The notes beneath the pieces were generated by a model that saw nothing but the letters and a program-made list of their open reading frames with translations, made no database searches and was not told the origin of the DNA. From Candidatus Electronema halotolerans (GTDB lineage: Bacteria > Desulfobacterota > Desulfobulbia > Desulfobulbales > Desulfobulbaceae), in contig OW818675.1 in NCBI GenBank assembly GCA_942493095.1, positions 1,080,001 to 1,112,000 of the forward strand: a stretch of DNA of 32,000 nt. Direction: 5' to 3'. Of this stretch, positions 1 to 23,102 are shown in pieces. Numbering within the stretch: position 1 is the stretch's first letter; the number at the start of each line of letters is the position of its first letter. The position numbers were made by a program, and so were the translations under genes.

Positions 1-1712
1 GCATGGTCGCTCTGCGCTGCCCGGTCTTCATCAAACCAGGCGCAGCAGACTGCCGGAGGCCAGTCCGGCTGCTCGCCGCAGCTGCGCTGATACACTGTCC
101 GGCCTGCCAAGTAAGCGGCAAACAAGGCTTTGATCAACGCGGGCGGCAGCGTGGCTGAGGAAATCAGCGCCCGCGAGCCGAGCAGGCCCGCCCAATGCAC
201 AAGGCGGCAAAGGGCGTGGGTGTCAGCAAGATCAAAATCATCCGGCTCGTCAAGAATCAGATCCGAGGTGAGCAGGCGGAGCATGGGCGCAATCTGTTTG
301 CCGCCCCGCGCCCCTTCTGTGGCTGGCATCAGATGATCAATCGTGCTGACTAAAATCGGCGCGCTGACCAATTGCAGCAGCTTGGGCGAATGCTTCAGCC
401 AAAGGCCGATGCGGCTGCCCGCCAAGTCGCCCTCATAGAGCAGATGCTGATCCGCGTCAAAGAGGTCTTCGCCGGATTCCGAGCCGGAGCCGCTGACCTG
501 CTCCTCCTGCCGCAGCTCATGCAGTTGCCGCACCGCCTGCGAGCCGATCAGCACGGCCAATTCATCTTCCTGAAGACGCAGCCGCTGCCGCAGCGCGTCG
601 CCGGTCTGCAAGGTCAGGGTGCGCAGACCCAAGGCGATGCTGAAACGGCAGCCGCGCCGTTCGTCCGCCAGCCCGTACATGATCCTGCCGTTGGCAAAGG
701 TCTTGCCGCAGCCGGTCGATGCCATGTTGATGCCGAAAAAGCCCTGCCGCTCCGAGCGCGTCCGCACCGCGCAGGCTATGTCAAAAGCTGCGTCCTGCCA
801 GGCAAAGCGGCCTCTGCCGCTCCGCTGCCTGAAGCCCTTGTGCCGGGCGAGAGCAGGGAGATGACGACGGAGCTGCGGCAGCCGCCGCGCCAGCAGCACC
901 GCGTGATGAGCCACGCCAATCAAGTGCTCGTCCAAGTGCTGCTTTTTCTCGCCAGTCTTGCGGTCAGTATTGGCTAACAGCTTGCATTTCTTGTCCCGCC
1001 AGACTGCGGCAGGCTCATGCGCCGACCAGATGTGATCGCCCAGCATCAGGGCCAGCCGGGCTGTGTGCATGGAAAAGACATCAGCCAGCCAGTCCTTTTC
1101 TCCGCTGAAGAGATCAGGCCGCCGCAAGGCCCGCTTGGCTAATGAGACCGCTGTCTTCTGCCACGTCGAGCTTTTCAGCGGCAATCCCTTGGCAAAGCTC
1201 CAGTTGTCCGCAATTTCCTTTACCTTCCAACTCTCCAAGCACTGAGGAGAATTCCAGCACGGCTCCAAGGCGGCGTTGAGGAATTCATCCGCCCGGCTGA
1301 CTGGCGGCTCTCCCTGCTGACCAGCAGCCTGCAACGGCCACTGCGGCAGCCGGTGGTGCGAGAGTATCAGCCAACCGATAATCCGGGCCAGCGGCTGGCC
1401 CTGCGCCTGCCAGAGCTTGAAGGGCTTGTCTTTGCTGCTCTGGCCAGTGCTGTCGCTGATCAGAGCGGCCAGCAGCACCTGTTCATCAATCTCCTGCGGC
1501 CTGAGCAGCCGCTCCAGCCAGTCCCGGTCAGGCAGCGTTCCGACAAAGGCTTGGAACAGGCGCAAAGACAGCCACTCATGGCGAAAGGCTTCAAAGGACT
1601 TGCCCTTGCCGCGCAGTTTCTTCTGAAACAGGACGTTTGCCTTGCCCAGATCGTGAAACAGCCCGGCCAAGCCTGCCAGCAGGGCGATGTCCTCGCTGAT
1701 ATTGTTGTTCAA
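1..1712 (-). CDS. cas3: Type I-F-like Cas3 HD nuclease / SF2 helicase, stand-alone (no N-terminal Cas2 domain); 3' end lies beyond the window
   Basis: Not in the ORF track because there is no stop in the window. My reverse-strand translation from TTG 1712 (AGGAGG at 1726-1721, 8 nt upstream; in-frame TAG just upstream) stays open to position 1. It reads LNNNISEDIALLAGLAGLFHDLGKAN...FRHEW...LSHHRL...LMLGDH (HD motifs), then NMASTGCGKTFANGRIMYGLAD (Walker A), STIDHLMP and LILDEPDDF (DExD box). It is collinear with I-F Cas2-3 proteins minus their Cas2 part. Confidence 0.9.
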   Translation of the reverse strand, partial: MNNNISEDIALLAGLAGLFHDLGKANVLFQKKLRGKGKSFEAFRHEWLSLRLFQAFVGTLPDRDWLERLLRPQEIDEQVLLAALISDSTGQSSKDKPFKLWQAQGQPLARIIGWLILSHHRLPQWPLQAAGQQGEPPVSRADEFLNAALEPCWNSPQCLESWKVKEIADNWSFAKGLPLKSSTWQKTAVSLAKRALRRPDLFSGEKDWLADVFSMHTARLALMLGDHIWSAHEPAAVWRDKKCKLLANTDRKTGEKKQHLDEHLIGVAHHAVLLARRLPQLRRHLPALARHKGFRQRSGRGRFAWQDAAFDIACAVRTRSERQGFFGINMASTGCGKTFANGRIMYGLADERRGCRFSIALGLRTLTLQTGDALRQRLRLQEDELAVLIGSQAVRQLHELRQEEQVSGSGSESGEDLFDADQHLLYEGDLAGSRIGLWLKHSPKLLQLVSAPILVSTIDHLMPATEGARGGKQIAPMLRLLTSDLILDEPDDFDLADTHALCRLVHWAGLLGSRALISSATLPPALIKALFAAYLAGRTVYQRSCGEQPDWPPAVCCAWFDEDRAAQSDH

Positions 1713-1749
1713 TCTCTCCGCCTCCTATGGCCCCTATAGGACAATCCAA

Positions 1750-2310
1750 TCAAAACCACGGCACTGTGGCCGTGCTGCTCAGGCCGTAATCCGAGAAACT
1801 GCCCGGCTGCGGGCTGTCCTGCACCCTGCCCTGCTCAATGAAAAGCAAAAACTGCTGGCCAGTGGATGCGCTTCTCAGGCGGACATGCGGCAGCTTGAGC
1901 CGCTCCTCCTCAGTTGCTGCCGCCTTGACTGCCAGCTCGTCCGCACTCAGACGGCCATTGCGCACTGAGCGCCGGTAGAGCCGCTCCGCGCTGCTCTTAG
2001 CCTGCACCCGCTGCACGATTCTGTGGTGACAATCCGCCGGAACTGGCAGTGGGCCGGACGCGCTGAGATGGTCCCGCATTCCAGTCAGCCAGTCCAAGGC
2101 CATCAGCCGTTCAAGAGCTTGCGCTGTGCCGTGCAGGCGCAGGCAGTCACCCAAATTTTTTCCCGCCTTGGGAAAGCTGATGCCAATCGCGCCCTGCCCT
2201 GCCTCGCACAAGGCGCGGTGCAGCTTGGCAAACAAGGCGTTCATGAGCAGGGTCTCAGGAAACTCCGGGTCAGGCAGCAGGCGCAGTTCCAAATAATGCT
2301 CCATGCTCAT
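1750..2310 (-). CDS. cas6f: Cas6f (Csy4) crRNA endoribonuclease
   Basis: [31 protein letters not shown]...[11 protein letters not shown]...[17 protein letters not shown]...[11 protein letters not shown] is collinear with Csy4. The ATG at 2310 overlaps the cas7f stop (ATGA). The longer ORF-track start at 2526 lies inside cas7f and is not used. Confidence 0.93.
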
Positions 2311-3320
2311 TCCCCTTTCTCGCCAAACACGCCGCCCCGGATCAGCACGGCCATCACATAGTGCTGCTGCTCTGCCGGCGGCACCTTGCCTTTCACTGCC
2401 CACCCGTCCAAGAGGCTGTAAAAATCCTCTTTTTCCTTTGGCTGGCGATAGGCCTTGCCCCGGTTGGTGACTGAGCCATACGGCTCCACCGCAATCGGCC
2501 CGATTTCCGCCGCAGAAGAATGCCACGTGTCAATGGTGCGCAGGGCGTTGCCGATCTTCTGCGAGTGCATGGCCGCTGTGCCGCCCACTTGGTAGAGGGT
2601 CTTGCTCTTCTTGCCGGACTTGTCCAAAATCAGCTCTTGCGAAGGAAATACTTCCTGTCCCTTGCCGAGCCGGACAAAACCATCCACTTCCAGCAGCACA
2701 AAGGAGCGGCCCAGCAGTCCGGCGGCAATCACCTCAGCCAAGCTCTTCAGTTCCGCCGTCGGCTCGGCAAACTGCCGCAGCGCAACGCTAAGGCCGTCAA
2801 AGTTCCATTCCTGCGCTGCTTGCCCGTCCTGCATCTGCCGCACCCGCACGGCCACAGCCTCGGCTCCGACCCGGTTGCGCCAGAGAAAGCGGCCATTGGC
2901 AAGGTTGGCGGCATAGCGGGCGGCCAGCTTCCTGAAGCCCTGCTCCTGCGCATAGCTGTCAATCACTGCGGCCAAGGCGTTCTGATAGTCCTGATCATTG
3001 CAGGCTGAGGGCTGGGAGAGATTGCCCAGCACCCGCAACGTGAAACTGACCCGCAGGGTGTCCGCAGCAGCAGGCAGGGCGGCTGCATCCACGGTCTGCA
3101 AGTTGGGCTTCTGGATTTCCGCGTCCAATTTGGCCGGGTTCTGCTGCAGCGCGGCTTTCAGGCGGTTGGACATCGTGCCCCGGACCGATTTCTCCTGAAT
3201 GCTGACCGGCTGCCAGTCCTTGCCGCAGTCCCGGTTCTCCCAAGCTCCAGCATGGAGCAGCGCGTCCGAATTTGCCAGCTTGCGTTCAAATGCCAACACA
3301 GATGCGGTTTTCACAGCCAT
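2307..3320 (-). CDS. cas7f: Cas7f (Csy3) Cascade backbone subunit
   Basis: [25 protein letters not shown]...[17 protein letters not shown]...[10 protein letters not shown]...[11 protein letters not shown]...[16 protein letters not shown]...LIRGGVFGE are hallmark Csy3 sequence blocks. Confidence 0.95.
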
Positions 3321-3323
3321 GAT

Positions 3324-4289
3324 TCATTCTCCTTCAACAGATTGATTATTCACTGTTTGATATTCATTCCGGCATAGATACCAGCCGCTTTCCGGCTCGG
3401 CCTCATGCCGCCAGATCAGCTCGTCCAGCGTTTGCGCCCGGTGCGGACTGAGCCATTCACCAACGCTGTAAACAGTCTCGGCAAAGCAGAACCGAGTTTG
3501 GCTGTCGCGGGCACGGGCTACCTGTCCCGGCTCGTGCAGCGCAGAAATGCCCCGATACCCGACGGCCAGCGGCACCAGCCAGCCGCTGCCCGGCTTGGGA
3601 ACATGCCGCCATTCTGTTTTCTCTTTGCCTTCCTTCGGCAGCTTGGCCTTGTATTTCAGGGCGGCAAAATCCAGCCAAGCATCCAGCGGCTCTGCTGCCG
3701 GATTCGCTTCCCGCAGCGAACGGAAATGCTCTGCCAAAAGATCAGTCCGCTCGATCAAGGCAAAGCCGGGCAGCAGGCAACGGAGCTGCTTGCGGATGAA
3801 TTGCTGCCTTTGCTCCCAATCTTCGGGAAGATTGTCCAAAGTCGCTTCTTGCAGGTCAAGCACAGTGCCGCCTGCCAGCCGCTGGCAGCACACCAGCCGC
3901 CGGATTTCCTCCAGCCACGCCTTTTTCTCCTCGCCATCCAAGGGCAGCTCGCCGGTGAAGGGAATCAGCAGCGACACAGTCAGCCGCATCCGGCCTTCCT
4001 CAATAAAGGAGGATGTTTCACCCGCCTTGGTCAGCGGGTTGCGGCTGAGGGCAAAGACATGATCCCAGCCCTTGGGCTGATGCGTCTGCGCTTCATGCTC
4101 ATGACAAACAATGCCGCAGCCGGTCAGGGTCAGGCCCCATTCCGGCGGCAGCTTGCGCGACAGGGCATGAGTGAAGCCGAGAAAGGCGGACACTGCCGGA
4201 AAGCCCCATGTCAGTCCGACCACAGCATTGGCGTTCTCCACCCTGATGCGCCGAAGCAGCAGCAGTCCTTGCTCTTTCATCATGATCAT
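3324..4289 (-). CDS. cas5f: Cas5f (Csy2)
   Basis: From ATG 4289 (it overlaps the cas8f stop as ATGA): MIMMKEQGLLLLRRIRVENANAVVGLTWGFPAVSAFLGF.HAL...LLPGFALI...GWLVPLAVGY...GEWLSPHR, collinear with Csy2. The ORF-track start at 4349 is probably too far upstream. Confidence 0.9.
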   Translation of the reverse strand: MIMMKEQGLLLLRRIRVENANAVVGLTWGFPAVSAFLGFTHALSRKLPPEWGLTLTGCGIVCHEHEAQTHQPKGWDHVFALSRNPLTKAGETSSFIEEGRMRLTVSLLIPFTGELPLDGEEKKAWLEEIRRLVCCQRLAGGTVLDLQEATLDNLPEDWEQRQQFIRKQLRCLLPGFALIERTDLLAEHFRSLREANPAAEPLDAWLDFAALKYKAKLPKEGKEKTEWRHVPKPGSGWLVPLAVGYRGISALHEPGQVARARDSQTRFCFAETVYSVGEWLSPHRAQTLDELIWRHEAEPESGWYLCRNEYQTVNNQSVEGE

Positions 4290-5623
4290 GCCAAGGCCTC
4301 CAGATCGTCTTTGAGTAGCCGCAGTTTCTTGCGCAGCAGACTCTTCCATTCGCCATGCTCCGCATCACCCGTAAAAAGAACCTGCCTGCCTTTCCCTTTG
4401 TCAATCCGCCTGTTCAGCCAGCGGGCAAAGCGGTCAGCAATTTCTTCCTGCCAGTCGTTCCGCTCCCGCTCGGCTCCGAATTCCTCATCAGCTGAACCCC
4501 GCCGGGGATCAAGCCAGAGTTGTTCGACTCTGTCCAGCCTGCATTCCGGCCTGCTGCTCCAGCCTGCGGCAAAGCTGTGTTGGATTTCAGCGGCATATTG
4601 GAGGAGCTGATCAATAATGCGGTCAATCAGCTCGGCCCGCCGGTCACGGATGGCAAGCGTGCTGTCTTTGTCCAGCACACGCTCAAGAAACGTGTTCAGG
4701 AGAGAGGTTTCCCGATAAACCCGTGCGCCGAAATGATGCCGTGAAAACAAGGTGCTGGTGTTCAGCGGCGGAGCGGTCATGCGCTTCCATGTCGGCGGGG
4801 CGCAGGAGAGCAGATGCACTTTGCCGCCACGTCTGATGTTAAGCTGGCTGACAACCTGTGGATTGCTGCCGCCAAAGTTCATCACTGCCGTATTCGGGTA
4901 ATCCACAGTCAGCGATTCGTGGAATGCCTCCTCCCGCCTTGCCTTGCGCGCTTCCTTGGCTGCATCGGAAAAGCGGGCTTCCTGCATCCGTTCATAGATT
5001 GCTTGGGCCAAGGATGACGAGAAAAGCGGCGAAAGCAGGTGATATTCTCCGGCACCGACCGGAAAATAGAGCTGCTTGGCCAAGGTGTGCGAACTGGGCT
5101 TGGCAGCAGAGACCGCTTGGGCGAAGCCTTTCAGCCAGTCGGCAAGCTGCGCGTCGCTTTTGGCAAAAGGCCGCAGCGGCTCGGCATCGCCTGCCCGGAT
5201 ATGGTCGAGCAGCATTCTGCCGTCCTGCTCCAATTGCAGCAATGCGGCAACGTCCAAGGCACCAGCATTACCGCTAACATCAATCGAGGGCCGGGCCAGC
5301 GAGGCCGTGCTGATCAGCGCGCCTTCCGGCATCCCATCTGGCTGCTGCGGCCCCGGCCCGGCATAGCAGCTTGTTGCGCCTTTGGCCTGCGAATTGGTGA
5401 ACTTGACCGGGTGAGTTGTGAACTGAATCTGTCCAGCCCGCCGGGCCGCATCGGTCAGCCACTCGGCAGGCGCAAACTTGCTCTTCAAGGCAAGCTCTTC
5501 CTCTGCCAAATCCGCTTCCAGCTCCGGGCTGGCTGCCGCTTTTTTCGCCAATGCCTCCAGCTTGGGCGCGGCCCGCCCGGCGATGAAGGCGGATATCTGT
5601 GCGGATAAGCTTTCTTCTTCCAT
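4286..5623 (-). CDS. cas8f: Cas8f (Csy1) large subunit
   Basis: AEWLTDAARRAGQIQ..TH..K...VSGNAGALDV...HTLAKQLYFP...YHLLSPLF...ARFSDAAKEAR...FGGSNPQ..SQLN...LAIRDRRAELI...LLQYAAEI...EQLWLDP are Csy1 blocks. An AGGAG RBS lies about 10 nt upstream of ATG 5623. Confidence 0.93.
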   Translation of the reverse strand: MEEESLSAQISAFIAGRAAPKLEALAKKAAASPELEADLAEEELALKSKFAPAEWLTDAARRAGQIQFTTHPVKFTNSQAKGATSCYAGPGPQQPDGMPEGALISTASLARPSIDVSGNAGALDVAALLQLEQDGRMLLDHIRAGDAEPLRPFAKSDAQLADWLKGFAQAVSAAKPSSHTLAKQLYFPVGAGEYHLLSPLFSSSLAQAIYERMQEARFSDAAKEARKARREEAFHESLTVDYPNTAVMNFGGSNPQVVSQLNIRRGGKVHLLSCAPPTWKRMTAPPLNTSTLFSRHHFGARVYRETSLLNTFLERVLDKDSTLAIRDRRAELIDRIIDQLLQYAAEIQHSFAAGWSSRPECRLDRVEQLWLDPRRGSADEEFGAERERNDWQEEIADRFARWLNRRIDKGKGRQVLFTGDAEHGEWKSLLRKKLRLLKDDLEALA

Positions 5624-5641: not shown

Positions 5642-5818
5642 CTAACAGAGGGTTTGCTCTCTTCGCCACCAGCCAAGTTGTTCAATCAAATTGGACAGGT
5701 TGCCTCCAACCACAGTCCAAGCCCACGCCGCTTTTTTGAGCACGGCCTGCAAAACAAGGATCACCAAAAATGCCGCTGCTTCGTTGGCAGCGGCTTGAAG
5801 GGCTGTGCTGATGCTCAT
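5642..5818 (-). CDS. Small hydrophobic protein (58 aa), first ORF of the cas transcription unit; function unknown
   Basis: Below the ORF-track size cutoff, so I translated it by hand: MSISTALQAAANEAAAFLVILVLQAVLKKAAWAWTVVGGNLSNLIEQLGWWRREQTLC. A GGAG (5826-5823) lies 4 nt before ATG 5818, and the stop at 5642 is 18 nt before the cas8f ATG. Coding status is unproven. Confidence 0.4.
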   Translation of the reverse strand: MSISTALQAAANEAAAFLVILVLQAVLKKAAWAWTVVGGNLSNLIEQLGWWRREQTLC

Positions 5819-5824
5819 TTTTCT

Positions 5825-5847
5825 CCATATTAGTTATATTGAAATGT
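5825..5847 (+). promoter_or_regulatory. PAM-flanked partial protospacer (predicted Cascade operator) in the 5' UTR of the cas operon
   Basis: CC (5825-5826) is followed by ATATTAGTTATATTGAAATGT. This matches the mini-array psi-spacer at 16/19 positions, plus 2 more nt. It lies between the -10 box and the RBS of the small ORF. Confidence 0.6.
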
Positions 5848-5856
5848 ACAGACGAA

Positions 5857-5885
5857 ATTATAGGGCGGATAAAGGGGGCTGTCAA
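5857..5885 (-). promoter_or_regulatory. Perfect-consensus sigma70 promoter driving the small ORF and the cas8f-cas3 operon
   Basis: On the minus strand, TTGACA (5885-5880), a 17-nt spacer, then TATAAT (5862-5857). The predicted TSS is near 5850, about 30 nt upstream of ATG 5818. Confidence 0.65.
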
Positions 5886-5894
5886 TCCCTGATC

Positions 5895-5923
5895 TTGTAC
5901 AACACAAAAAAAACAGGTATAAT
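5895..5923 (+). promoter_or_regulatory. Promoter of the mini-CRISPR (divergent from the cas promoter)
   Basis: TTGTAC (5895-5900), a 17-nt spacer, then TATAAT (5918-5923). It ends 1 nt before psi-repeat 1, and its -35 box is 9 bp from the -35 box of the cas promoter. Confidence 0.6.
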
Positions 5924-5924
5924 T

Positions 5925-6002
5925 TTCATACTGCCGCACAGGCTAGCTTAGAAAATATTCGTTATGCTGAAATGTTAAACTGCCGCACAGGCAGAATGCC
6001 CG
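5925..6002 (+). CRISPR. Degenerate two-repeat type I-F mini-CRISPR (crRNA-like regulatory RNA, CreA/CreR-type)
   Basis: Psi-repeat 1 is TTCATACTGCCGCACAGGCTAGCTTAGAAA (5925-5954). It resembles the I-F consensus GTTCACTGCCG.A.AGGCAGCTTAGAAA with 2 inserted bases and an intact CTTAGAAA handle. The spacer is 19 nt (5955-5973). Psi-repeat 2 is GTTAAACTGCCGCACAGGCAG.. (5974 onward), with an intact CTGCC-GCACA-GGCAG Cas6f hairpin and a degenerate 3' part. It is oriented opposite to the cas genes. Confidence 0.75.
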
Positions 6003-6024
6003 GAGCGTTGCTCCGGGTTTGTTT
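5999..6024 (+). terminator. Rho-independent terminator of the mini-CRISPR transcript
   Basis: CCCGGAGC-GTT-GCTCCGGG stem-loop followed by TTTGTTT. Confidence 0.7.
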
Positions 6025-6044
6025 GAGTGTGCGGCGAGTAACCC

Positions 6045-6706: not shown

Positions 6707-7735
6707 ATGAAAACAGCAAGTCTTGGCGAGCTGGCCGCCTTGGTCGGCGGCACGGTCTCTGGTGATCCAAGCCTGACCGTCACGGCCCTGAACAGTCTGG
6801 AACTGGCCGAGCCGGGCCAGCTCACCTTCATCACCAGCACCAAGTTCGCTGACCAACTGGTACAGAGCGGAGCTTCTGCCTGCATCGCCCCTGTGGATTT
6901 CAGCAGCGAGCTGCCGCTGATTCAGGTCAGCAATGTTGACATGGCCGCCGCCCGCATTCACAGTTATCTCTTGAGCGAAGACTTCCAGCCGACTGGCATT
7001 CACGAGCGGGCCGTGCTTGGCTGCTGCTGCGTGATCAGCGAGATGGTCAGCATCAGCCCCCTGGTCAGCATTGGCGACCGGGTCCATATTGGCGAGCGGG
7101 TGCGGATCAGGCCGGGCGCAGTGATTGGCGATGATGTGCAGATTGGTGATGACTGCGTCATCCATGCCAATGCGGTGGTGGCCAATGGCTGCATTCTCGG
7201 CAGGCGGGTGGTGCTCCATCACGGGGCCGTGGTCGGCAGCGACGGCTTTGGCTTTGCCACTGACCCAGCCACTGGCGAGCACCTGAGCAAGCCGCAGGTT
7301 GGCACAGTCCGCCTCGATGATGATGTGCAGATTGGGGCCAACTCCTGTGTGGACCGAGCCGCCTTTGGCGTGACCCATGTCAAGCGCGGGGTGCGGATTG
7401 ACAATCTGGTCATGATCGGTCACAACTGCGTGATCGGCGAGAACTCCATCTTAGTCGGGCAGGCAGGAATTGCGGGCAGCACCACTTTAGGCCGCAATGT
7501 GGTCTTGGCGGCAGGAGCTGGCGTGGCCGGTCATCTGCACTTGGAAGACGGGGTGATGGTGGCTGGCAAGGCCGGGGTGCATAACAGCCAGAAAAAAGGG
7601 GTAAAGCTGGGCGGCATCCCGGCCATTGATGTGAAGCAGTGGGGCAAGGCAGTCGCTGTCTTCAGCCGCCTGCCAGAGCTGTTCAAGGAGCTGCGGCGGC
7701 TGCGCAAGGACGTTGACAGGCTGCTCGGCAGCTGA
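6707..7735 (+). CDS. lpxD: UDP-3-O-acylglucosamine N-acyltransferase
   Basis: The N-terminus LGELAALVGG...GDPSL.VTALNSLELAEPGQLTF is followed by long hexapeptide-repeat (left-handed beta-helix) segments such as IG..V.IG....I. The RBS is GAAGGAG. Confidence 0.85.
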   Translation: MKTASLGELAALVGGTVSGDPSLTVTALNSLELAEPGQLTFITSTKFADQLVQSGASACIAPVDFSSELPLIQVSNVDMAAARIHSYLLSEDFQPTGIHERAVLGCCCVISEMVSISPLVSIGDRVHIGERVRIRPGAVIGDDVQIGDDCVIHANAVVANGCILGRRVVLHHGAVVGSDGFGFATDPATGEHLSKPQVGTVRLDDDVQIGANSCVDRAAFGVTHVKRGVRIDNLVMIGHNCVIGENSILVGQAGIAGSTTLGRNVVLAAGAGVAGHLHLEDGVMVAGKAGVHNSQKKGVKLGGIPAIDVKQWGKAVAVFSRLPELFKELRRLRKDVDRLLGS

Positions 7736-9016
7736 TCAGGAGGCTTCGTCCTGATTGAGATGGAAGAGGCTGCGCACCACGGCAATGCGCTCCTGCCGGT
7801 TGGCGCACTCGTGCTCGCTTTTCAGATATTGCAGCGGGTGATGAAGGAGCTTGCCAGCAATGGCTGAGGCCATCCGTTCCACGGACTTGCGCTCCTTGTC
7901 ACTGATGCCGTTCAGGCGGGACAGGGTTTTCTCCAGCTCGGCCTGGCAGATCGACTCAGCCGCAGCTTGCAGCTCAACAATGGTCGGCGTGACCTCCATT
8001 GCCTCCAGCCAGCGCATGAACTTGATCGTCTCCTCCTCAACAATGCGCTTGGCCTTGACCGCCTCCCGGTCGCGCTGCTCCTTGTTCATCTCCACCACAT
8101 TGTTGAGATCGTCAATGTCGTAAAGATAGACGTTGTCGAGCGTGTTGATCTCCGGGTCCAAGTCGCGGGGCACGGCAATGTCGATCAGGAACAGAGGCCT
8201 GTGGCGGCGGCGCGGCATGATTGAGGCCACGTCCTTTTTGCTGAGGATCAAGTCTGTTGCGCCGGTGGAGCTGATGAGTATGTCTGTTTCGGCCAGTTGT
8301 TCGAGCAGCTCGTCCAGACTGGCCGCCTGGCCTTTGAAGCGGGCCGCCAATTTCACCGCCCGCTCCAAGGTGCGGTTGACCACTGTCACCTCGGCAATGC
8401 CTTGGCTGATCAGATGCTCGGCAGCCAGCTCGGCCATCTCACCTGCGCCGACCAGCATGGCCTGCTTGCCCTGCAAGTCGCCGAATATCTTCCGGCCCAG
8501 CTCCACAGCAGCATAGGAAATCGACACGGCACTGGCCCCGATCCGGGTCTCTGTCCGCACCCGCTTGGCAGCCGAGAAGGCCTTGTGCAGGAGCCGGTTG
8601 AGAATCAGCCCCGCAGTCTTCTGCTCAGAGGCATGACGGTAGGCTTCCTTGAGCTGGCCAAGGATTTGGGCCTCGCCGACAATCATGGAATCCAAGCTGG
8701 CTGCGACGGTGAAGAGATGCCGCACCGCCTCGCTGCTGAAATGGGTGTAAATGCAGGGTTCCAAATCCTCCCAGCTCACCCGGCCTGCAAAGAGCAGTTC
8801 CAGCACCTCCCGCCTTGTCTGCTCCGGTTCCGCGCAGACAAAAAGCACTTCCACCCGGTTGCAGGTTGAGAGCAAGTAATGCTCTTTCAAGCTGCGGAGC
8901 TGGCGGAGCTGATTGAGCGGCTCCTCATAGCCGCTGCTCAGAGCCAGCTTTTCCCGGATTTCCAGCGGCGTGTTCTTGTGATTCACCCCCAGCAGGACAA
9001 TGGAGTCACGGCCCAT
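7736..9016 (-). CDS. hemA: Glutamyl-tRNA reductase
   Basis: LLGVNHKNTPLEIREKLAL...LLSTCNRVEV...SMIVGEAQILGQLK..Y...MLVGAGEMAELAAEHL are HemA signatures. Its stop abuts the lpxD stop (7735/7736). Confidence 0.92.
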   Translation of the reverse strand: MGRDSIVLLGVNHKNTPLEIREKLALSSGYEEPLNQLRQLRSLKEHYLLSTCNRVEVLFVCAEPEQTRREVLELLFAGRVSWEDLEPCIYTHFSSEAVRHLFTVAASLDSMIVGEAQILGQLKEAYRHASEQKTAGLILNRLLHKAFSAAKRVRTETRIGASAVSISYAAVELGRKIFGDLQGKQAMLVGAGEMAELAAEHLISQGIAEVTVVNRTLERAVKLAARFKGQAASLDELLEQLAETDILISSTGATDLILSKKDVASIMPRRRHRPLFLIDIAVPRDLDPEINTLDNVYLYDIDDLNNVVEMNKEQRDREAVKAKRIVEEETIKFMRWLEAMEVTPTIVELQAAAESICQAELEKTLSRLNGISDKERKSVERMASAIAGKLLHHPLQYLKSEHECANRQERIAVVRSLFHLNQDEAS

Positions 9017-9017
9017 C

Positions 9018-9824
9018 TCAGCTTCCTCCTCCTTTGAGCAGCAGAAAGAAGAAAGTCACTAAGGTGGCGCAGAAGGCCAGCATGGTCAGTAGGGCGACTT
9101 GACGGCCCCGCCAGCCCTTGGCAAAGCGCAGGTGCATCAGCCCGGCATAGAGCAGCCAGGTCACTAATGCCCCGACAATCTTGGAATGCCAGCCCCAGCT
9201 CCGTTGGCCGCCAAGCTGGAAGGCCCAGACCGAGCCGACAATCATGCCCAAGGTCATGAGGGGAAAGCCGATGCTGACGCAGTGCTGGTTGAGGGTGTCC
9301 AAGGTGTCGAGCGAGGGCAGGCGGTGATAGAAGAAGCCGAAGCGTTTCTGCTTGAGCTGCCGTTCCTGAATCAGGTACATCAGGCCGCCAATGGCTGCCA
9401 AGGCGAGAAAGGCATCCGCGACAATTGAGATGGAGGCATGAACCGGCAGCAGCCATGAGCGCAGCTCCGGCGGCAAGGGCATGATCTCATGCGGGGCAAA
9501 GGCGGCGGCCAGCATCAGCAGGGCCACTACGAGGGAGGCAAAGGCCCCGAAGTTCTTGACCGGGTAGCGCCAGCGGAAGGTGATATGGCCGCAGGCGATG
9601 GACCAGGCGAAAAAGGAGATGATCTCGTGAATGCTGGTGATCGGGGTGTGCCCGGCCTCAAGATAGCGGGCCGCGATGTTGACCGTGTGCAGGGCCGCAG
9701 CAGTGAAAAAGAAAGCCCGGCCCCAGCCGCGCACCTTCTTTTTTCTGCCGACAAAGAACACGGCGTAAAAAATGGCGGCAGCCCAGTATGCTGCCAGGCT
9801 GCAAAGAAAAAGCAGATAACTCAT
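9018..9824 (-). CDS. ccsA: Cytochrome c assembly protein (CcsA/HemX-like) membrane protein
   Basis: Polytopic membrane protein with the W-rich segment IISFFAWSIACGHITFRW. It sits directly upstream of hemA, as in hemAX-type operons. Confidence 0.6.
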   Translation of the reverse strand: MSYLLFLCSLAAYWAAAIFYAVFFVGRKKKVRGWGRAFFFTAAALHTVNIAARYLEAGHTPITSIHEIISFFAWSIACGHITFRWRYPVKNFGAFASLVVALLMLAAAFAPHEIMPLPPELRSWLLPVHASISIVADAFLALAAIGGLMYLIQERQLKQKRFGFFYHRLPSLDTLDTLNQHCVSIGFPLMTLGMIVGSVWAFQLGGQRSWGWHSKIVGALVTWLLYAGLMHLRFAKGWRGRQVALLTMLAFCATLVTFFFLLLKGGGS

Positions 9825-10474
9825 CTGTTCTGTTCCGGCTGAAAATCCGCGTCAGGCCCCAGAACTGCGCGCAGATGGCTGCGCAGCCGCTCCCATTGGC
9901 CGTTTCGTATCCAGTCGAGTATATCTGCATGCAGGATATTCGCAAACAGATTTTTTCGTGCGACCTCGTCCCGCTGCCCGGCCAGCTCCTGCGCCCGGAT
10001 CCGTCCCAGCAGGTCAAGCAGGACGGCGTATTCCGGGCCATAGTCGGCTTCGAGCCGCTTTCTGATCCGGGCGGACAGGGCCGGGCTTCGGCCATTGGTT
10101 GACACGGCAATGGTCAGGTCGCCCTGCCGGAGCACTGCTGGCACCTGAAAGCCGCACTGGTCCGGCGCGTCCGCCACATTGACCAACTGCCCAGCCGCTA
10201 CAGCTGTCTGCGCCACCAGCTCGTTGACCTGCCTGTTGTCAGTGGCGGCAAAGACCAGCATGGCCCCGGCCAGATCATCAGCCTGAAAGCAGCGGCCCAG
10301 CCAGTCAATCCGGCCTGCGGCGGCCAGCTCATGCAGCGGTTCAGTGAGCTGCGGACTGACCGCCCGCACCTGCGCCCCGGCCTTGAGCAGGGCACGTATC
10401 TTCCGCTCTGCCACCCTGCCCCCGCCGACCACCACGCAGAGCTGGCCGCTGATGTTGAGGGTGACAGGATACAT
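9821..10474 (-). CDS. Precorrin-2 dehydrogenase / sirohydrochlorin ferrochelatase (siroheme synthase N-terminal type)
   Basis: MYPVTLNISGQLCVVVGGGRVAERKIRALLKAGAQVRAVSP (Rossmann GGG motif), then ...LVFAATD...VN..V...A, typical of SirC/CysG-N. Its stop overlaps the next gene's start. Confidence 0.8.
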   Translation of the reverse strand: MYPVTLNISGQLCVVVGGGRVAERKIRALLKAGAQVRAVSPQLTEPLHELAAAGRIDWLGRCFQADDLAGAMLVFAATDNRQVNELVAQTAVAAGQLVNVADAPDQCGFQVPAVLRQGDLTIAVSTNGRSPALSARIRKRLEADYGPEYAVLLDLLGRIRAQELAGQRDEVARKNLFANILHADILDWIRNGQWERLRSHLRAVLGPDADFQPEQNR

Positions 10475-10492
10475 GCGGACAGATTAGACAGG

Positions 10493-10780
10493 TCAGCCGA
10501 TGATCTTGGGCACGACAAAGGCCTGGTCATTATGCTGCGGGCTGTTGGCCAAGGCCGCCTCCCGTGGCAGCGAGGGCCGCACCTCATCCTCGCGGAAGGC
10601 GTTGACCGCCTCCTGGCTCCGGGCCGCAGCCGACACCGCGCTGGTGTCCAGCTCATCCAGCTTGGCCACGTAACTGAGAATGTTGTCCAACTGGACAGTC
10701 ATCCGCCCGACCTCCTCTTCGCTCAGTTCCAAGCGGGCAAGGCGGGCGGTCTGTTCAACTTCAGATCGGGTGATTTTCAT
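10493..10780 (-). CDS. gatC: Asp-tRNA(Asn)/Glu-tRNA(Gln) amidotransferase subunit C
   Basis: From ATG 10780: MKITRSEVEQTARLARLELSEEEVGRMTVQLDNILSYVAKLDELDTS...FREDEVRPS, which is canonical GatC. The ORF-track start at 10936 is too long. Confidence 0.9.
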   Translation of the reverse strand: MKITRSEVEQTARLARLELSEEEVGRMTVQLDNILSYVAKLDELDTSAVSAAARSQEAVNAFREDEVRPSLPREAALANSPQHNDQAFVVPKIIG

Positions 10781-10942
10781 GGCTGGTTGATTGTGAAAAA
10801 GTGATGAGATTGCAAGCACGTCGCAGGGGCGGCCACAGGGGGCCGCCCTTACTGGAGAAAGACATGACTGATTGAGTATATCCTCATCCAGGATATTCGC
10901 CACATGTTTTCCCGCCCTGCCCTGCCCCCTTCTCAAGCAGGG

Positions 10943-11497
10943 TCAAGCATTCCTGAACTGATAGGCGGCCACGACTCCGCCGACTGCGCCGAACAGGTGT
11001 CCTTCAAAGGAGATGCAGCCCTTGGGGATGAAGCCGCCCAGCATGCCCCAGCCATAGACAACTGCGACAAACAGGGCCACCAGCACTGGCACAAAGGCCT
11101 TTTTCAGCAGGCCGTAGCTGATCAGGAAGGCGGCCAGACCGTAAATAAGCATGCTGGCCCCGATATGGTTGCCTGACCGGCCAAAGAGCCAGAGCAGCGG
11201 GCCGCTGCTGATGATGATCGTGACTATGACCGAGGCAAAGAGGCGGCGGTAGAAGATGGTCAGCAGCAGGCTGAGGACAAACAGCGGCACAGTGTTGCTG
11301 ACAATGTGGCCAAAGTTGGCGTGCAGGAAATTGCTGCTGACAATGCCGACCAGACCGCCGCAGGTGCGCGGCACAATCCCCCACGAGTTGAGGCGGCCCG
11401 GAATAATGAAGTCGGCCAGATAAATTGTCCAGATGGCGCAGACCAGATAGACCGGCCCAGCCGCGACCCCGAATCTGCTTGCTTGTGGGTTGTTCAT
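10943..11497 (-). CDS. Rhomboid-family intramembrane serine protease
   Basis: Six hydrophobic helices; FLHANFGHIVSN (H..H motif) and the GASMLIYGL catalytic Ser motif. Confidence 0.8.
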   Translation of the reverse strand: MNNPQASRFGVAAGPVYLVCAIWTIYLADFIIPGRLNSWGIVPRTCGGLVGIVSSNFLHANFGHIVSNTVPLFVLSLLLTIFYRRLFASVIVTIIISSGPLLWLFGRSGNHIGASMLIYGLAAFLISYGLLKKAFVPVLVALFVAVVYGWGMLGGFIPKGCISFEGHLFGAVGGVVAAYQFRNA

Positions 11498-11603
11498 GAC
11501 TCAACGGAATCAGGCTGCAATCGAGTCGCAGCTGTTGTTATTTTCTGATCAGGAGAAAGGAGGACAGTCTTGCGGAGCCGAGGCGTTGCTTCTGCCTGTC
11601 GGC

Positions 11604-12467
11604 TCAATGACAGCGTTGCAAGAAGCCGGGCAGCAGGTCCAGCACTTGGGCTAAGGCATCTTCGAGCACATAATGTCCAGCCTCTGGGAAATAATGGCTC
11701 TCTGCCTTGGGGAAACGCCGCCGCCACTCAGCATGAAAGTGATCATTGAAGCAGAAGTCCTGCCCGCCCCAGCAGATCAGCATCGGCTTATCGTGCAGCC
11801 GCGCCAAAGACTGCTCCACTGCACAGAGGGTGTCCCACGAGGGATGGCCGGGCCGCATGGGGATGTCCTGGACAAAGCGATGCACAGCCACCCGGTTGGC
11901 CCAGCTGTTGTAAGGCGCGAGAAAGCCTGCCTTGATCTCAGGCCGCATCTTCTTGCGCACGGCCATGAAGGTGGCTGGCCAAGCAAAGCCATTCAGGCCG
12001 CGCACTAACAGCGCGCCGAGCAGCGGCCAGCGGCAGACGGCTATCCGCAGGGCCAAGTGCTTGGAGCGGAAGGCGGCAGTATTGAAGACGATCAGCCCGG
12101 CGACCCGCTCCGGGTGCTGGCCTGCCCAGCCCATGCCAATGGCCCCGCCCCAGTCATGCACAGCCAGCACGCAGCGTTCAATGCGCAGGTGATCAAGCAG
12201 GGCAGTGAAGTTGTCTATATGATGCTGGAGACGATAGGGCCAGTCCTGCGGCTTGGCAGACAGGCCGCAGCCGAGATGATCCGGGGCAATGCAGCGGTGC
12301 GTGCGCCGCAGCGAGGCGATCAGGTTCCTATACAGGTACGACCAAGACGGATTGCCATGCGCCATGACCACAGGCAGGCCGTTGCCTTCATCGACGTAAG
12401 AAAGCTGGTAGCCGTCAGGAGTGGCAAAGGTTTGCGGGGTGAAAGGGTATTCAGCAAAGGTTGGCAT
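11604..12467 (-). CDS. Alpha/beta hydrolase (haloalkane dehalogenase-like fold)
   Basis: YVDEG.G.PVVMAHGNPSWSYLYRN...APDHLGCGLS.KP...LAVHDWGG (nucleophile elbow with Asp)... Confidence 0.8.
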   Translation of the reverse strand: MPTFAEYPFTPQTFATPDGYQLSYVDEGNGLPVVMAHGNPSWSYLYRNLIASLRRTHRCIAPDHLGCGLSAKPQDWPYRLQHHIDNFTALLDHLRIERCVLAVHDWGGAIGMGWAGQHPERVAGLIVFNTAAFRSKHLALRIAVCRWPLLGALLVRGLNGFAWPATFMAVRKKMRPEIKAGFLAPYNSWANRVAVHRFVQDIPMRPGHPSWDTLCAVEQSLARLHDKPMLICWGGQDFCFNDHFHAEWRRRFPKAESHYFPEAGHYVLEDALAQVLDLLPGFLQRCH

Positions 12468-12492
12468 TAGGAGTTTGGATAATGTTTAAAGA

Positions 12493-12549
12493 ATCGTCAT
12501 CACGCAGGCGGATGGAACGGCGATGATGAATGTCGGGATTGTATTGCAT
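12493..12549 (-). pseudogene. 5' stub of a second RAYT gene (first 19 codons only)
   Basis: ATGCAATACAATCCCGACATTCATCATCGCCGTTCCATCCGCCTGCGTGAT... is nearly identical to the start of the RAYT gene at 14427. It breaks off 25 nt from the hydrolase start codon. Confidence 0.7.
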
Positions 12550-12570
12550 GACATCACAGACCGGAGATGC

Positions 12571-12648
12571 GTAGGGGCGAAAAATTTTTCGCCCCTACAA
12601 CGGGCCAATTCCGTATTCCGTAGGGACAATTCATGAATTGTCCCTACG
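12571..12648. repeat. REP doublet (REP1 GTAGGGGCGAAAAATTTTTCGCCCCTAC + REP2 CGTAGGGACAATTCATGAATTGTCCCTACG)
   Basis: Two perfect 22-bp palindromic cores 20 nt apart. The same doublet, with an identical spacer AACGGGCCAATTCCGTATTC, recurs at 14470-14547. The RAYT stop codon lies inside REP2. Confidence 0.9.
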
Positions 12649-12882
12649 GATGCAGCGCATCCTCTTCCCAGTGGGTCGGATTATTACAGATATATTCACG
12701 AATGCGGTGCAGGTCGGCATCATCGCGGATGATATGTTCCCAGTAATTGCGTTGCCAGACGGTATGAACATCGGTATGTTGCCGCATCCATTTTGTCACC
12801 CAGATTTTGAATCCGCGCACGATTGAACCAATTGTTTTCGATGTGCCGTTTTGTAGGGGCGAAAAATTTTTCGCCCCGACGG
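12644..12882 (-). pseudogene. REP-associated tyrosine transposase (RAYT), C-terminal part, separated from its N-terminal part by the IS
   Basis: The reverse translation reads ..VGAKNFSPLQNGTSKTIGSIVRGFKIWVTKWMRQHTDVHTVWQRNYWEHIIRDDADLHRIREYICNNPTHWEEDALHP*. It joins in frame with 14427-14147 once the IS and one TSD copy are removed. Confidence 0.8.
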
Positions 12883-14146
12883 CTTACCATCCATCACTTT
12901 TCTTGACAGAGCTTGAACGCCGGAGTAAAAAGATTGAAAAAACAATTCGTTTATTCAAACTCTGTGAAATATGAGCACGATCAGTCATCTGGCAGAGGAA
13001 ATCTCGTCCGGCCTGCGAGACGTTTTGCCCGGAATTAACAGGAATCCTCTGCGCAAGTTAAGCTTGTGCGCGGCGGCGGTTTTGGAAGTTCAGAGTTGCA
13101 ATACTATGGACATGGCGGCTGTCCTTCCGCTGGAAACAGAACGGATTGACATGCGATATCAGTGGTTAAGCCGTTTCCTGAGCACAGACTCAATCGACAA
13201 TGATGATGTGATGCGGCCTTTCATCCGTCAGGCATTGGAGACGGCCTCCGCTTCGGGAGAAACGCTGATTCTGTGCATTGACCAGACGCAGCTATCCGAC
13301 CGTTTCGGCATTCTTTCGCTGTCATTGCGCTTCGGCGGTCGGGCCCTGCCTCTGCTATGGCGGGTCCGAAAAGGACAGGGCAATATCGGCTCGGATATCT
13401 GCATGGAACTTCTTGAAAAAATAAAATCATTCCTTCCAGAGGGCAGCAGAGTGCTGCTGCTCGGCGACCGTTTTTACGGTCAAGCGCCGCTGATTGCATT
13501 CTGCCACCGCAGCGGCTGGGATTATCGGCTCCGCCTCAAGGAAAATCTTAAAGTTTTCAATGAGGCCGGCGATGAGACATCTCTTGCGGACCTTGTTCCT
13601 GCTGAAAAGAAAGGTCGCAAGGAACTGCTTATGAAAAATATTTATCTGACAGAACAGCGGGTTCAGACAAATTTAAGCATTCTCCAGGAGCCGGGACATG
13701 ATGAGCCTTGGCTGCTGGCAGTCGGAGGAACTGAGCCAAATTATTATAAAACACTTGATTACGGCATGCGCTGGGGATGCGAGGCCATGTTCAGCGATTT
13801 CAAAACCAGGGGGTTCGGTTTGGAGGACACAAAACTGGAGCGCGCCGACAGAATCGCCAGACTGATGCTGATCCTCTCGGTCGCCATGCACTGGTGCGTA
13901 CTCGCCGGACTCCGCGACAGGATGCGGAACCCGCTTCCAAGAGAAAAAAAACTGAAAATTTCGGATTTGACGACGTTGCCGACAAGGATGCGGAACAGCA
14001 TGAGCTGCCGCCAGTCGTCAGAAAAACTTGGAGAAGTGTCTGTTCTTATTTCAAAAGAGGACTCAGGCTGCTCAGAAGATACGCTCAGATGCTCCGTCCC
14101 CTGCCTCCCTTGTTTTTTACATTGCGAAAAAGTGATGGATGGTAAG
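12883..14146 (+). mobile_element. IS4-family insertion sequence (1264 bp) inserted into the RAYT gene
   Basis: The terminal inverted repeats are CTTACCATCCATCACTTTT (12883-) and AAAAGTGATGGATGGTAAG (-14146). A 10-bp direct target duplication GCCCCGACGG sits at 12873-12882 and 14147-14156. An internal TTGACA-17-TAAAAA (12903-) precedes the transposase. Confidence 0.85.
12971..14145 (+). CDS. IS4-family DDE transposase; a -1 frame change at the A8 run (13944-13951) is needed to reach the IS-internal stop
   Basis: LCIDQT (D), LLLGDRFY (D) and YGMRWGCEAMFSDFK (the Y-2-R-3-E-6-K signature). The zero frame reads through the IS end to 14188. The -1 frame gives ..KTENFGFDD...SYFKRGLRLLRRY... and stops at 14145 inside the right IR. 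Confidence 0.75.
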
Positions 14147-14427
14147 GCCCCGACGGTGTCGGTCAAAACCACAATTCCATGCAGATGATTCGGCATGATG
14201 ACCCATTCATCCAATGCCGAATGTGGAAAATGCGATGGAATTTCCCGCCAGCATTGTGCCGCAATCCGGCCTGCCGCATTCAACATCATTACACCGTCCG
14301 CAATTTCCCCAAATAAACATTCGTGGTTATGGGTGCAGACGGTGACAAAATACGCCCCGGCCTGCGAATAATCGTAATCACGCAGGCGGATGGAACGGCG
14401 ATGATGAATATCGGGATTGTATTGCAT
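14147..14427 (-). pseudogene. RAYT, N-terminal part
   Basis: MQYNPDIHHRRSIRLRDYDYSQAGAYFVTVCTHNHECLFGEI......PNHLHGIVVLTDTVGA is the IS200-like Y1 HUH (HLH) motif region. The ORF-track continuation past 14147 runs into IS sequence. Confidence 0.8.
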
Positions 14428-14469
14428 CACAAATTTGCGGGTTGCGATTGGTTTCGTGTTGCAATCACC

Positions 14470-14547
14470 GTAGGGGCGAAAAATTTTTCGCCCCTACAAC
14501 GGGCCAATTCCGTATTCCGTAGGGACAATTCATGAATTGTCCCTACG
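14470..14547. repeat. REP doublet (REP1 + REP2), upstream of the RAYT gene and downstream of rhs
   Basis: Same sequence and spacing as 12571-12648. Confidence 0.9.
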
Positions 14548-14628
14548 ATGGGAAGAGAACGCAGCAGGCCGAACGGTTGCTTTGGTGGGGTGCTGGCAAG
14601 GCAAAATGCGCAAATGATAGCCCGCTTG

Positions 14629-20526: not shown

Positions 20527-20584
20527 GGAAGTGTCTCCGCTGCGGGGAAGGCTGGACTGCTGGATGAATGAGCTGCAAAGCCCA

Positions 20585-20614
20585 AACATACCAATACTTG
20601 GTAAAAACTGTCAA
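20585..20614 (-). promoter_or_regulatory. Candidate sigma70 promoter for rhs
   Basis: On the minus strand, TTGACA (20614-20609), an 18-nt spacer, then TATGTT (20590-20585). The -35 box sits in the palindrome AAAACTGT-TG-ACAGTTTT. Confidence 0.4.
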
Positions 20615-22439: not shown

Positions 22440-23102
22440 ATGCAAAAAAATATATGGCTTCTGCTGCTCCTGTCTGCATTGTCGGCAGTGCTGCCCGCCT
22501 GTCCGGCGCAGGCGGAGTGGAACATGACCAGGTCGATCAAGGAGCTGCTTGCAAAACCCAAACCTGCATCTGAGGCGGCGGAAAAAAAAGAAGGTGAAGA
22601 AAAACAGGCGGCCCGGCAGGAATTTTCACCCCGGAACCGCTTCAAGGACAATGGCGACGGCACGCTGACTGACACCAGCACTGGCCTGATCTGGCTGAAA
22701 AATGCCAACTGCGCTGTTTTTTTCAAGGACGATTCCTCGGTCAAAAACAGCCGCCCTTGGCATGAAGCGCGGCTGGCGGCCTATAATCTGTCTGACGGCT
22801 TCTGCGGCCTGTCCGACAATTCCAAATCAGGCGACTGGCGGCTGCCTGAGCGCGAGGAGCTGCTGGGCATTGCCCATCATTCTGAAGACAAGGACAACTG
22901 GGCCGCAGGCGAAGCCTTCAGCGACATCCAGTCCTTTTATTACTGGTCATCCACCATTGGCGACCTGTATCCTGATTTCGCCTTTTATGTCAGCCTCGCC
23001 TATGGTATGGACAACTATGCCTTTCAGCTCAACAGCTTCCACGTGCTGCCGGTGCGGAAGCCAAAGAAGCAGCAGGCAGCGCTGTCAAGCGGGTCAAAAT
23101 AA
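22440..23102 (+). CDS. Secreted DUF1566 (Lcl C-terminal domain) protein
   Basis: Signal peptide MQKNIWLLLLLSALSAVLPACPAQA; RFKDNGDGTLTDTSTGLIWLKN and DWRLPEREELL motifs; RBS AAGGAGG. Confidence 0.75.
   Translation: MQKNIWLLLLLSALSAVLPACPAQAEWNMTRSIKELLAKPKPASEAAEKKEGEEKQAARQEFSPRNRFKDNGDGTLTDTSTGLIWLKNANCAVFFKDDSSVKNSRPWHEARLAAYNLSDGFCGLSDNSKSGDWRLPEREELLGIAHHSEDKDNWAAGEAFSDIQSFYYWSSTIGDLYPDFAFYVSLAYGMDNYAFQLNSFHVLPVRKPKKQQAALSSGSK

Follow-up and report, generated by a model that had tools for sequence, protein, structure and literature searches.

The left end of a 32,000-nt stretch of the Candidatus Electronema halotolerans genome (contig OW818675.1, positions 1,080,001 to 1,112,000; here called the window) encodes a type I-F CRISPR-Cas (short palindromic repeats, clustered and regularly interspaced, and associated proteins) locus, which runs on the minus strand from a 58-amino-acid (aa) open reading frame (ORF) through csy1, csy2, csy3 and csy4 to cas3. 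We consider it likely that this is a chromosomal I-F1 locus of a small lineage with permuted gene order, in which a deletion has removed cas1 and the Cas2 domain and left a stand-alone Cas3f, and which carries a feedback RNA resembling a CRISPR RNA (crRNA), hereafter cr-like RNA. A first-pass annotation, made from the sequence alone, had read the locus as an interference-only or otherwise rearranged I-F variant. Both halves of that reading apply, as cas1 and the Cas2 domain are deleted and the csy genes precede cas3.

Protein families were assigned with NCBIfam equivalog and Pfam profiles, and all five Cas proteins scored far above the cut-offs (Table 1), including Cas3, which exceeded its cut-off of 566 bits with only the 570 residues that lie within the window. 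The order cas8f-cas5f-cas7f-cas6f-cas3 and the Csy1-4/Cas3f-like nature of the proteins, both proposed in the first-pass annotation, were borne out by gene calls and profile matches. Cas8f could be aligned with residues 34-430 of the 434 residues of Pseudomonas aeruginosa Csy1, including the C-terminal helical bundle that recruits Cas3. In comparisons with PDB chains, Cas7f matched I-F1 Csy3 with expectation values of 1e-135 to 1e-142, the ICP1 and HNH variants with about 1e-57 and I-F3 with about 1e-20. By these comparisons, the effector is classified as type I-F1 and neither as I-F2 nor as I-F3. Type I-F2 systems have no Cas8f and possess variant Cas5fv and Cas7fv, whereas here Cas8f is present and Cas7f is of the I-F1 type. 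With I-F3, the Tn7-like CRISPR-associated transposons, the locus shares the absence of cas1 and cas2, but I-F3 systems have no Cas3, contain a Cas8f-Cas5f fusion and reside in a transposon with tnsABC and tniQ. In the window, csy1 and csy2 are unfused, Cas3 is present and the locus is flanked by housekeeping genes (ydjM, lpxD, hemA, ccsA and others). The gene dnaA is located at 29526-30881 on the minus strand, about 24 kb from the CRISPR locus, which is assigned to the chromosome in the vicinity of dnaA.

The canonical I-F1 loci of P. aeruginosa PA14 and Pectobacterium atrosepticum have the order cas1, cas2-3, csy1-4, array. The locus studied here resembles them in its separate, full-length Cas8f, Cas5f, Cas7f and Cas6f, its Cas3f-type HD helicase, the 28-nt repeat with a CTGCC-N5-GGCAG hairpin, the 32-nt spacers and the CC protospacer-adjacent motif (PAM). 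It differs from them in that the csy genes come first and cas3 last, cas1 is missing, Cas3 has no fused Cas2 and the array follows cas3 and not cas6f.

The part of the locus beyond the left end of the window was obtained from two contigs of different sequencing runs, L001 and L002, which were retrieved by exact-protein look-up with Cas7f. Their sequences agree fully with the window (100% identity over 12,528 bp for L001 and 5,877 bp for L002) and reach 1,415 bp past its left end. The full cas3 encodes 996 aa (L001 10817-13807), with the stop codon about 1.28 kb left of window position 1. Translation is predicted to start at a TTG (1712-1710) about 20 residues ahead of the HD motif; on the reverse complement, AGGAGG is located at 1721-1726, 8 nt before this TTG, and in-frame stop codons are found upstream at 1725-1727 and 1734-1736. 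Only 37 nt separate the csy4 stop from the cas3 start. This start, the AGGAGG and an in-frame stop had been described before and were recovered here, the earlier coordinates being off by 1-2 nt. Residue 6 of the Cas3 ORF corresponds to position 109 of the 1110-position Cas3f profile (the match spans 109-680), and alignments with the solved Cas2/3 chains in the PDB also run from residue ~109-123 on. Because the Cas3 alignments begin at about position 109, the Cas2 domain of some 100 residues is absent, as previously supposed, and the profile PF21384 (Cas3_I-F_Cas2) was not found in the window Cas3 or in its nearest Cas2-less relatives.

A search by tblastn with queries from the clade gave no match to Cas1 or the Cas2 domain in the 32-kb window, and none to Cas1 in L001. 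Among the relatives introduced below, cas1 was also not found within 10 kb in L003, nor on either side of the locus in the contig of L006. A separate or frameshifted Cas2 hidden immediately before cas3, which the first-pass annotation had named as a possible objection, was ruled out by the 37-nt gap, its in-frame stops and the negative tblastn search. A sequencing error behind the stop codon, a further objection, is excluded because the three assemblies are identical, stops included. The wider notion that an assembly or sequencing artefact created the stops or removed cas1 and Cas2 has a negligible probability: no point in its support was found, the window, L001 and L002 are identical independent assemblies, and the architecture is common to four diverged loci.

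The Cas2 Pfam domain is missing in 7 of the 120 best matches in a survey of Cas3 homologues. Among the closest, it is absent from P0001 (locus L089; 89% identity to the window Cas3), P0002 (L003; 85%) and P0005 (L006; 71%), and it is present in P0003 (L007; 85%) and P0004 (77%). The loci L089, L003 and L006 have the order csy1-4-cas3-array without cas1, and L007 has the order csy3-csy4-cas1-cas2-3-array. As the intact form of the clade is csy1-4, cas1, cas2-3, array, represented by L007, the window locus is regarded as a deletion derivative. The next relative, L173 (61% Cas3 identity), has the canonical order. Unbiased scans of JGI metagenomes and of species representatives in GTDB gave 160 I-F loci, and in none of them do the csy genes precede cas3. 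The order is thus not common, contrary to another possible objection named in the first-pass annotation. Of these loci, a single one (L052) has lost cas1 and Cas2. The closest Cas3 match in these scans had 58% identity in the GTDB genomes and 49% in the JGI metagenomes, and the clade is therefore known from just six short contigs obtained by exact-protein look-ups. Judged from these loci, the order csy1-4 to cas3 is limited to a narrow clade in which Cas3 is at least 71% identical.

The deletion junctions were compared between these loci. The window and L003 share the sequence of the new start, GGAGGCGGA.A.ATTGA.CAACA, the context of which seems to stem from the final codons of Cas2 (…SEGAAPTNT…). 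L089 keeps the original ATG of cas2-3 (MNI…), and its excision is another one, which preserves the reading frame. P0080 and P0041, which belong to unrelated lineages, have the N-terminus of Cas1 fused to Cas3, with the break at the same 'PTNTT' linker. L090, L091 and L052 are further Cas2-less loci with canonical order. Cas1 and Cas2 have thus been lost repeatedly within I-F1. Those end-points that survive are clustered at the linker between Cas2 and the HD domain, and we infer that only deletions in this linker leave a working Cas3. The window csy1-4 genes are 90-98% identical to those of L003 and 77-83% identical to those of L089, and for cas3 the relation is inverted (85% and 89%, respectively); such mosaic identity points to recombination within the locus.

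In L003, the region between csy4 and cas3 (9335-10004) contains a PIN-like gene and a 70-aa gene. The matches within this insert are weak, both for PIN (21.5 bits; Pfam cut-off 23.6) and for DUF6435. Its ORFs of 154 and 70 aa were considered as remnants of cas1 and cas2, which was ruled out as neither has similarity to Cas1 or Cas2; they look like an inserted toxin-antitoxin pair. In addition, a HigB/HigA pair splits the L003 array (14019-14627), with two more repeats beyond it. By these gene contents, toxin-antitoxin cassettes have apparently colonised the L003 locus.

All Cas3 motifs are present, namely HD (FHDLGK), Walker A (STGCGKT), DEPD, SAT and QLAGRIRRH (QxxGRxxR). Pairwise ratios of nonsynonymous to synonymous substitution rates (dN/dS) were 0.10-0.20 for cas3 and 0.06-0.25 for csy1-4; between the window and L003, which have the deletion junction in common, the value for cas3 was 0.19. 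Given the intact motifs of Cas3 and a dN/dS of about 0.2, interference has probably been retained, while adaptation has been lost or outsourced. It is very improbable that the locus is a decaying remnant, in which the deletion would be an early step in the loss of a system no longer doing anything. The five cas ORFs are full-length with intact catalytic motifs, and dN/dS remains within 0.06-0.25 for every gene, including between loci sharing the deletion. In addition, the deletion produced a proper ribosome-binding site and start codon, the promoters of operon, array and mini-array (see below) are preserved, and the architecture persists down to 71% Cas3 identity. Decay would agree with the fact that loss of cas1 and cas2 is a common route of CRISPR-Cas erosion, with the truncated leader of the array and with the toxin-antitoxin-like inserts of L003, PIN between csy4 and cas3 and HigBA inside the array.

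Table 1. Coordinates of the CRISPR-Cas features in the window.
Feature	Position	Strand	Remarks
cas3f, HD nuclease/helicase, 5' 570 codons of 996	1-1712, off left end	-	TIGR02562, 660 bits
csy4/cas6f, crRNA-processing endoribonuclease, 186 aa	1750-2310	-	TIGR02563, 179 bits; PF09618, 217 bits; gene call in L001
csy3/cas7f, backbone subunit, 337 aa	2307-3320	-	TIGR02566, 448 bits
csy2/cas5f, 321 aa	3324-4289	-	TIGR02565, 321 bits; PF09614, 363 bits
csy1/cas8f, separate full-length large subunit	4286-5623	-	TIGR02564, 381 bits (cut-off 169)
58-aa ORF	5642-5818	-	first operon cistron; stop 18 nt before csy1 ATG
Guide target: CC PAM (5825-5826) and protospacer ATATTAGTTATATTGAAATGT	5825-5847	+	between operon -10 and Shine-Dalgarno sequence of the 58-aa ORF
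Operon promoter TTGACA-17-TATAAT	5857-5885	-	12/12 consensus positions
Mini-array promoter TGTACA-16-TATAAT	5896-5923	+	divergent from cas promoter; -10 conserved in L006 and L088
Mini-array (cr-like RNA gene)	5925-6001	+	psiR1, guide, psiR2
psiR1 TTCATACTGCCGCACAGGCTAGCTTAGAAA	5925-5954	+	
Guide, 19 nt, ATATTCGTTATGCTGAAAT	5955-5973	+	
psiR2 GTTAAACTGCCGCACAGGCAGAATGCCC	5974-6001	+	perfect Cas6f hairpin
Terminator-like hairpin (5998-6018) and T-rich tail	5998-6028	+	ends mini-array transcript

The first-pass annotation had seen neither adaptation genes nor an array. This holds for cas1 and Cas2 but not for the array, which is missing from the window because the window ends inside cas3. The leftward extension in L001 and L002, suggested there as a search for both, yielded no cas1 but a CRISPR array that begins 48 nt past the cas3 stop and thus lies about 1.33 kb beyond the left end of the window. 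Its first repeat is slightly degenerate and is separated by a 32-nt spacer from a perfect GTTCACTGCCGCACAGGCAGCTTAGAAA repeat, after which both contigs end, with one spacer visible; a 28-nt repeat and a 32-nt spacer are the format of I-F arrays. A promoter of the sequence TTGACA-17-TAAACT is located 16 nt past the cas3 stop. The array is found in the same position in all relatives, with full arrays in L003, L006 and L004. As compared with the leaders of L089 (7370-7537), L003 (12992-13144) and L007 (5844-6034), that of the window genome (L001 13808-13855) is without about 130 nt which are conserved in L089, L003, L006, L004 and L007; this deletion still leaves the -35/-10 pair directly before the first repeat. 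Next to the Cas1-less loci, 14 spacers (with two duplicated pairs) were counted in L003 and 15 in L006; the Cas1-positive L004 has at least 67 spacers (at least 68 repeats). In L006 (8215-8242), L004 (13990-14017) and L007 (5876-5903), a single degenerate repeat directly follows the stop codon of cas3, some 130-150 nt ahead of the array proper; it has been lost in L089 and in the window genome.

These arrays bear on the question of whether the locus is the effector half of a split system, with an array fed in trans by a Cas1-Cas2-3 module elsewhere in the genome or on a mobile element. The loci L004 (77% Cas3 identity; 9039-18269) and L008 (58%; 8709-13467) consist of cas1-cas2-3 followed by a long array, and the 8-10 kb upstream of them contain no csy genes. 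Such loci could represent the complementary half of a split system or, instead, have the array between cas3 and csy1. A supply in trans would also fit the conserved leader of about 130 nt retained by the Cas1-less L003, L006 and L089, and the first spacers of the window genome and L003, which differ despite the shared junction and would have been acquired independently. The window genome itself has lost the 130 nt of the leader and kept the promoter alone, however, the arrays next to Cas1-less loci are short (14 and 15 spacers as opposed to at least 67 in L004), and the common junction could also reflect recombination. We therefore regard a split system as unlikely, though still as an alternative to be reckoned with.

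Spacers matching cas3 were observed in two of the arrays. For the leader-proximal spacer of L003 (13173-13204), relatives have a match near the 3' end of cas3, on its antisense strand, at 28/32 positions in the window genome (L001 13612-13643) and at 27/32 in L007 (5654-5685), both with a CC PAM; the cas3 of L003 itself does not match this spacer (>9 mismatches). The visible spacer of the window array (L001 13884-13915, about 1.36-1.39 kb left of position 1) covers the same region of cas3 with a 5-nt shift; in a hand alignment it matched cas3 of L089 (~7174-7205) at 26/31 positions with one gap and a CC PAM. The corresponding site in the window genome's own cas3 has TT in place of the CC PAM and a mismatch at position 1. 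Shuffled spacers gave no hits. Possible explanations are self-acquisition from the leader-adjacent gene followed by escape, or targeting of incoming related loci. Regulation of the genome's own cas3 by the first array spacer was ruled out by the TT and the position-1 mismatch, and in L003 by the number of mismatches.

Upstream of the operon and divergent from it, two degenerate repeats enclose a short guide (Table 1). The first-pass annotation had listed them as the only repeats in the window, and no further array was found in the 32 kb; they are not debris, however, but a regulatory mini-array. On the plus strand, the core of the repeat hairpin is present twice (5931-5945 and 5980-5994), and the only other matches to it with up to two mismatches, at 23046-23060 and 25240-25254 on the minus strand, are isolated and not part of an array. 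The guide has its sole match in the window, with 0.00 expected by chance, at the 5' end of the operon. Guide and target pair at 17 of the 18 non-sixth positions, which was reached by none of 5000 shuffled guides. When the window is compared with L088 and L006, covariation of guide and target is seen at positions 4, 7, 10 and 11, and none of the three loci pairs at positions 6 and 12, the two that are flipped out in Cascade complexes. The 5' handle and the hairpin are 25 nt apart in the window and 24 and 18 nt apart in the other two loci, as compared with 37 nt in a normal crRNA; this distance is thus shortened by two or three 6-nt Cas7f steps, two in the case of the window.

Of 148 canonical I-F1 loci, 39 have a reverse-oriented element with two hairpins in the spacer between cas3 and csy1. 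An autoregulatory I-F1 mini-array of this kind has been validated by reporter assays in P. aeruginosa YL84, where its spacer is shorter and positions 6 and 12 are unpaired with the target (Shmakov et al., 2023, PMC10120712), and the same type of element has been named CreR (Liu et al., bioRxiv 2023.03.10.532045). The mini-array of the window can be classed with this published cr-like RNA type: a guide of reduced length stands between two degenerate repeats, the element lies just upstream of csy1 and points away from the direction of the cas genes, and a CC-flanked match with mismatches 6 and 12 is found at the promoter of the Cascade operon. In contrast to the published elements, it is not located in a cas3-csy1 spacer, because cas3 has moved, but adjoins the housekeeping gene ydjM, and its target is downstream of the -10 region in the 5' untranslated region of an extra small ORF. 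As judged by gene order, the mini-array keeps its usual place relative to csy1, and it is cas1-cas2-3 that moved. By analogy with YL84, the mini-array probably turns down the promoter of its own operon.

Some further features surround the mini-array. The sequence GAGTGTGCGGCGAGTA (6019-6036, plus strand) in the 5' region of ydjM is complementary to the hairpin arm of psiR2, and a minimum-free-energy fold pairs the two around the terminator. This sequence is perhaps what remains of a third repeat, in inverted orientation, or part of an alternative structure. L003 (5130-5303) and L089 (100-234), which have neither mini-array nor small ORF, share another cassette upstream of csy1 (…TTTTTTCAA.AAA.CCG.TTTATG…), so that the clade has two alternative 5' regulatory regions in circulation.

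The 58-aa ORF has homologues upstream of csy1 in L088 (72% identity) and L006 (45%), and its dN/dS was 0.13. No Pfam or PADLOC match was obtained at expectation values up to 1, and a 5.8-billion word search and an exhaustive profile search of 1.84 billion representatives returned its own small family only, with two matching clusters among the latter. The structure predicted by AlphaFold is a single long helix and is uninformative as to the fold. A GC-rich hairpin followed by ATTTTTGG is located within the ORF (5772-5794, minus strand) and is partly conserved in L088; it resembles a terminator or attenuator, and may reflect the coding sequence alone.

By analogy to known CRISPR-repressed pairs, the 58-aa protein is possibly a toxin. 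Mini-array and ORF might then constitute an addiction module of the CreTA/CrePA type, by which the cell would depend on the Csy complex and the effector would be retained. The geometry is that of CrePA/CreTA in Acinetobacter baylyi ADP1 and Acinetobacter sp. WCHA45 (bioRxiv 2024.01.05.574328), with a creA-like mini-array, a promoter-proximal target with CC PAM and a small gene upstream of csy1. The window, L088 and L006 have both the mini-array and the ORF, L003 and L089 have neither, and the ORF is under purifying selection. It is, however, similar neither to CreP/KilAC nor to any toxin family, it is not strongly hydrophobic in L006, and it seemingly shares the promoter of csy1-4, unlike in CrePA/CreTA; as it is apparently co-transcribed with csy1-4, the protein would be made whenever the effector is. 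An addiction module thus seems improbable to us. Similarly doubtful, and offered as speculation, is a broader scheme in which the 58-aa protein would be a factor (toxin or regulator) repressed by the cr-like RNA, forming a self-policing cassette that keeps the adaptation-less effector with its stand-alone Cas3f, and in which the repeated excision of cas1 and Cas2 would have been selected. A possible cause of such selection is the position of cas3 beside the leader, by which the array would keep acquiring spacers against cas3; both arrays seen in the lineage of the window and L003 begin with a cas3-matching spacer.

Taken together, the locus is best explained by the loss of cas1 and Cas2 from a permuted I-F1 lineage with retained, self-regulated interference. 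In this lineage, the modules would be ordered as regulatory mini-array, csy1-4, cas1, cas2-3, leader and array. A deletion that took out cas1 and the Cas2 domain and stopped at the Cas2/HD linker would have produced a Cas3f with a new TTG start and ribosome-binding site. The consensus sigma-70 promoter is predicted to transcribe the 58-aa ORF, csy1-4 and cas3 as one operon, and the array downstream of cas3 would be transcribed from its own promoter. Cas6f would then cut the repeats and the Csy complex would form, find CC-flanked targets and recruit monomeric Cas3 through the helical bundle of Cas8f, resulting in DNA degradation. The locus alone would be unable to acquire new spacers. The divergent mini-array would give rise to a short-guide cr-like RNA that is loaded into a Csy complex of reduced length and binds the non-template strand at about +4 to +24 of the transcribed region of the operon. 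Transcription would be blocked without licensing Cas3, a negative feedback by which free effector is sensed. In this model, the gene content, the loss of domains, the array, the intact motifs, the purifying selection, the consensus matches of promoters and terminator, and the pairing and covariation of guide and target are observed, and expression, interference, repression and the succession of evolutionary events are deduced from sequence.

Several points weigh against this explanation. In the literature, we found no paper showing that a natural Cas3f without Cas2 is recruited and active. The I-F system of phage ICP1 needs Cas1 to recruit Cas2/3, and its Cas8f is without the helical bundle (bioRxiv 2024.03.09.584257). 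By analogy, this requirement for Cas1 speaks against recruitment of Cas3 alone, although the bundle that ICP1 Cas8f lacks is kept in the window Cas8f. Both systems have an altered link between adaptation and interference proteins, but ICP1 represents the opposite solution, lacking the bundle and relying on Cas1, whereas the window locus has the bundle and neither Cas1 nor Cas2. Because the window Cas8f keeps the bundle, recruitment of Cas3 without Cas1 is plausible. A second locus with cas1 and cas2-3, or more arrays, may exist elsewhere in the 3.2-Mb source genome. Furthermore, the gene trees are mosaic, with the csy genes nearest to L003 and cas3 nearest to L089, which makes the number and order of the deletion events uncertain. 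Finally, psiR1 has a one-base bulge in its Cas6f hairpin in both the window and L088, and processing of its 5' handle is an assumption.

Outside the CRISPR locus, the window contains an insertion sequence (IS) element at about 12489-14406, with a DDE transposase (12971-14188) and 40-nt inverted ends. Contig L001 breaks exactly at the left end of this element, and a 1986-aa RHS-repeat protein is encoded adjacent to it (14629-20589, minus strand).

A literature search gave no specific description of a Cas3f without Cas2 or of the order csy1-4-cas3. With its permuted I-F1 modules and stand-alone Cas3f, the locus represents an uncommon form of a well-known system; the small ORF is new, while the type of feedback RNA is already known. 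The general picture of the type I-F mechanism is unchanged, and the locus is not mechanistically surprising. The window thus provides a natural Cas3f that has neither a Cas2 domain nor a Cas1 partner and is nevertheless under purifying selection, which would imply that the Cas1-Cas2 scaffold is dispensable for interference in I-F1 systems possessing the Cas8f bundle. The clustered end-points at the Cas2/HD linker mark where the fusion protein tolerates cutting. In addition, the published I-F1 autoregulatory mini-array is extended to a rearranged operon, with a conserved small ORF at the regulated site, and the locus as a whole represents a compact interference cassette of six (or five) genes with a built-in feedback RNA.

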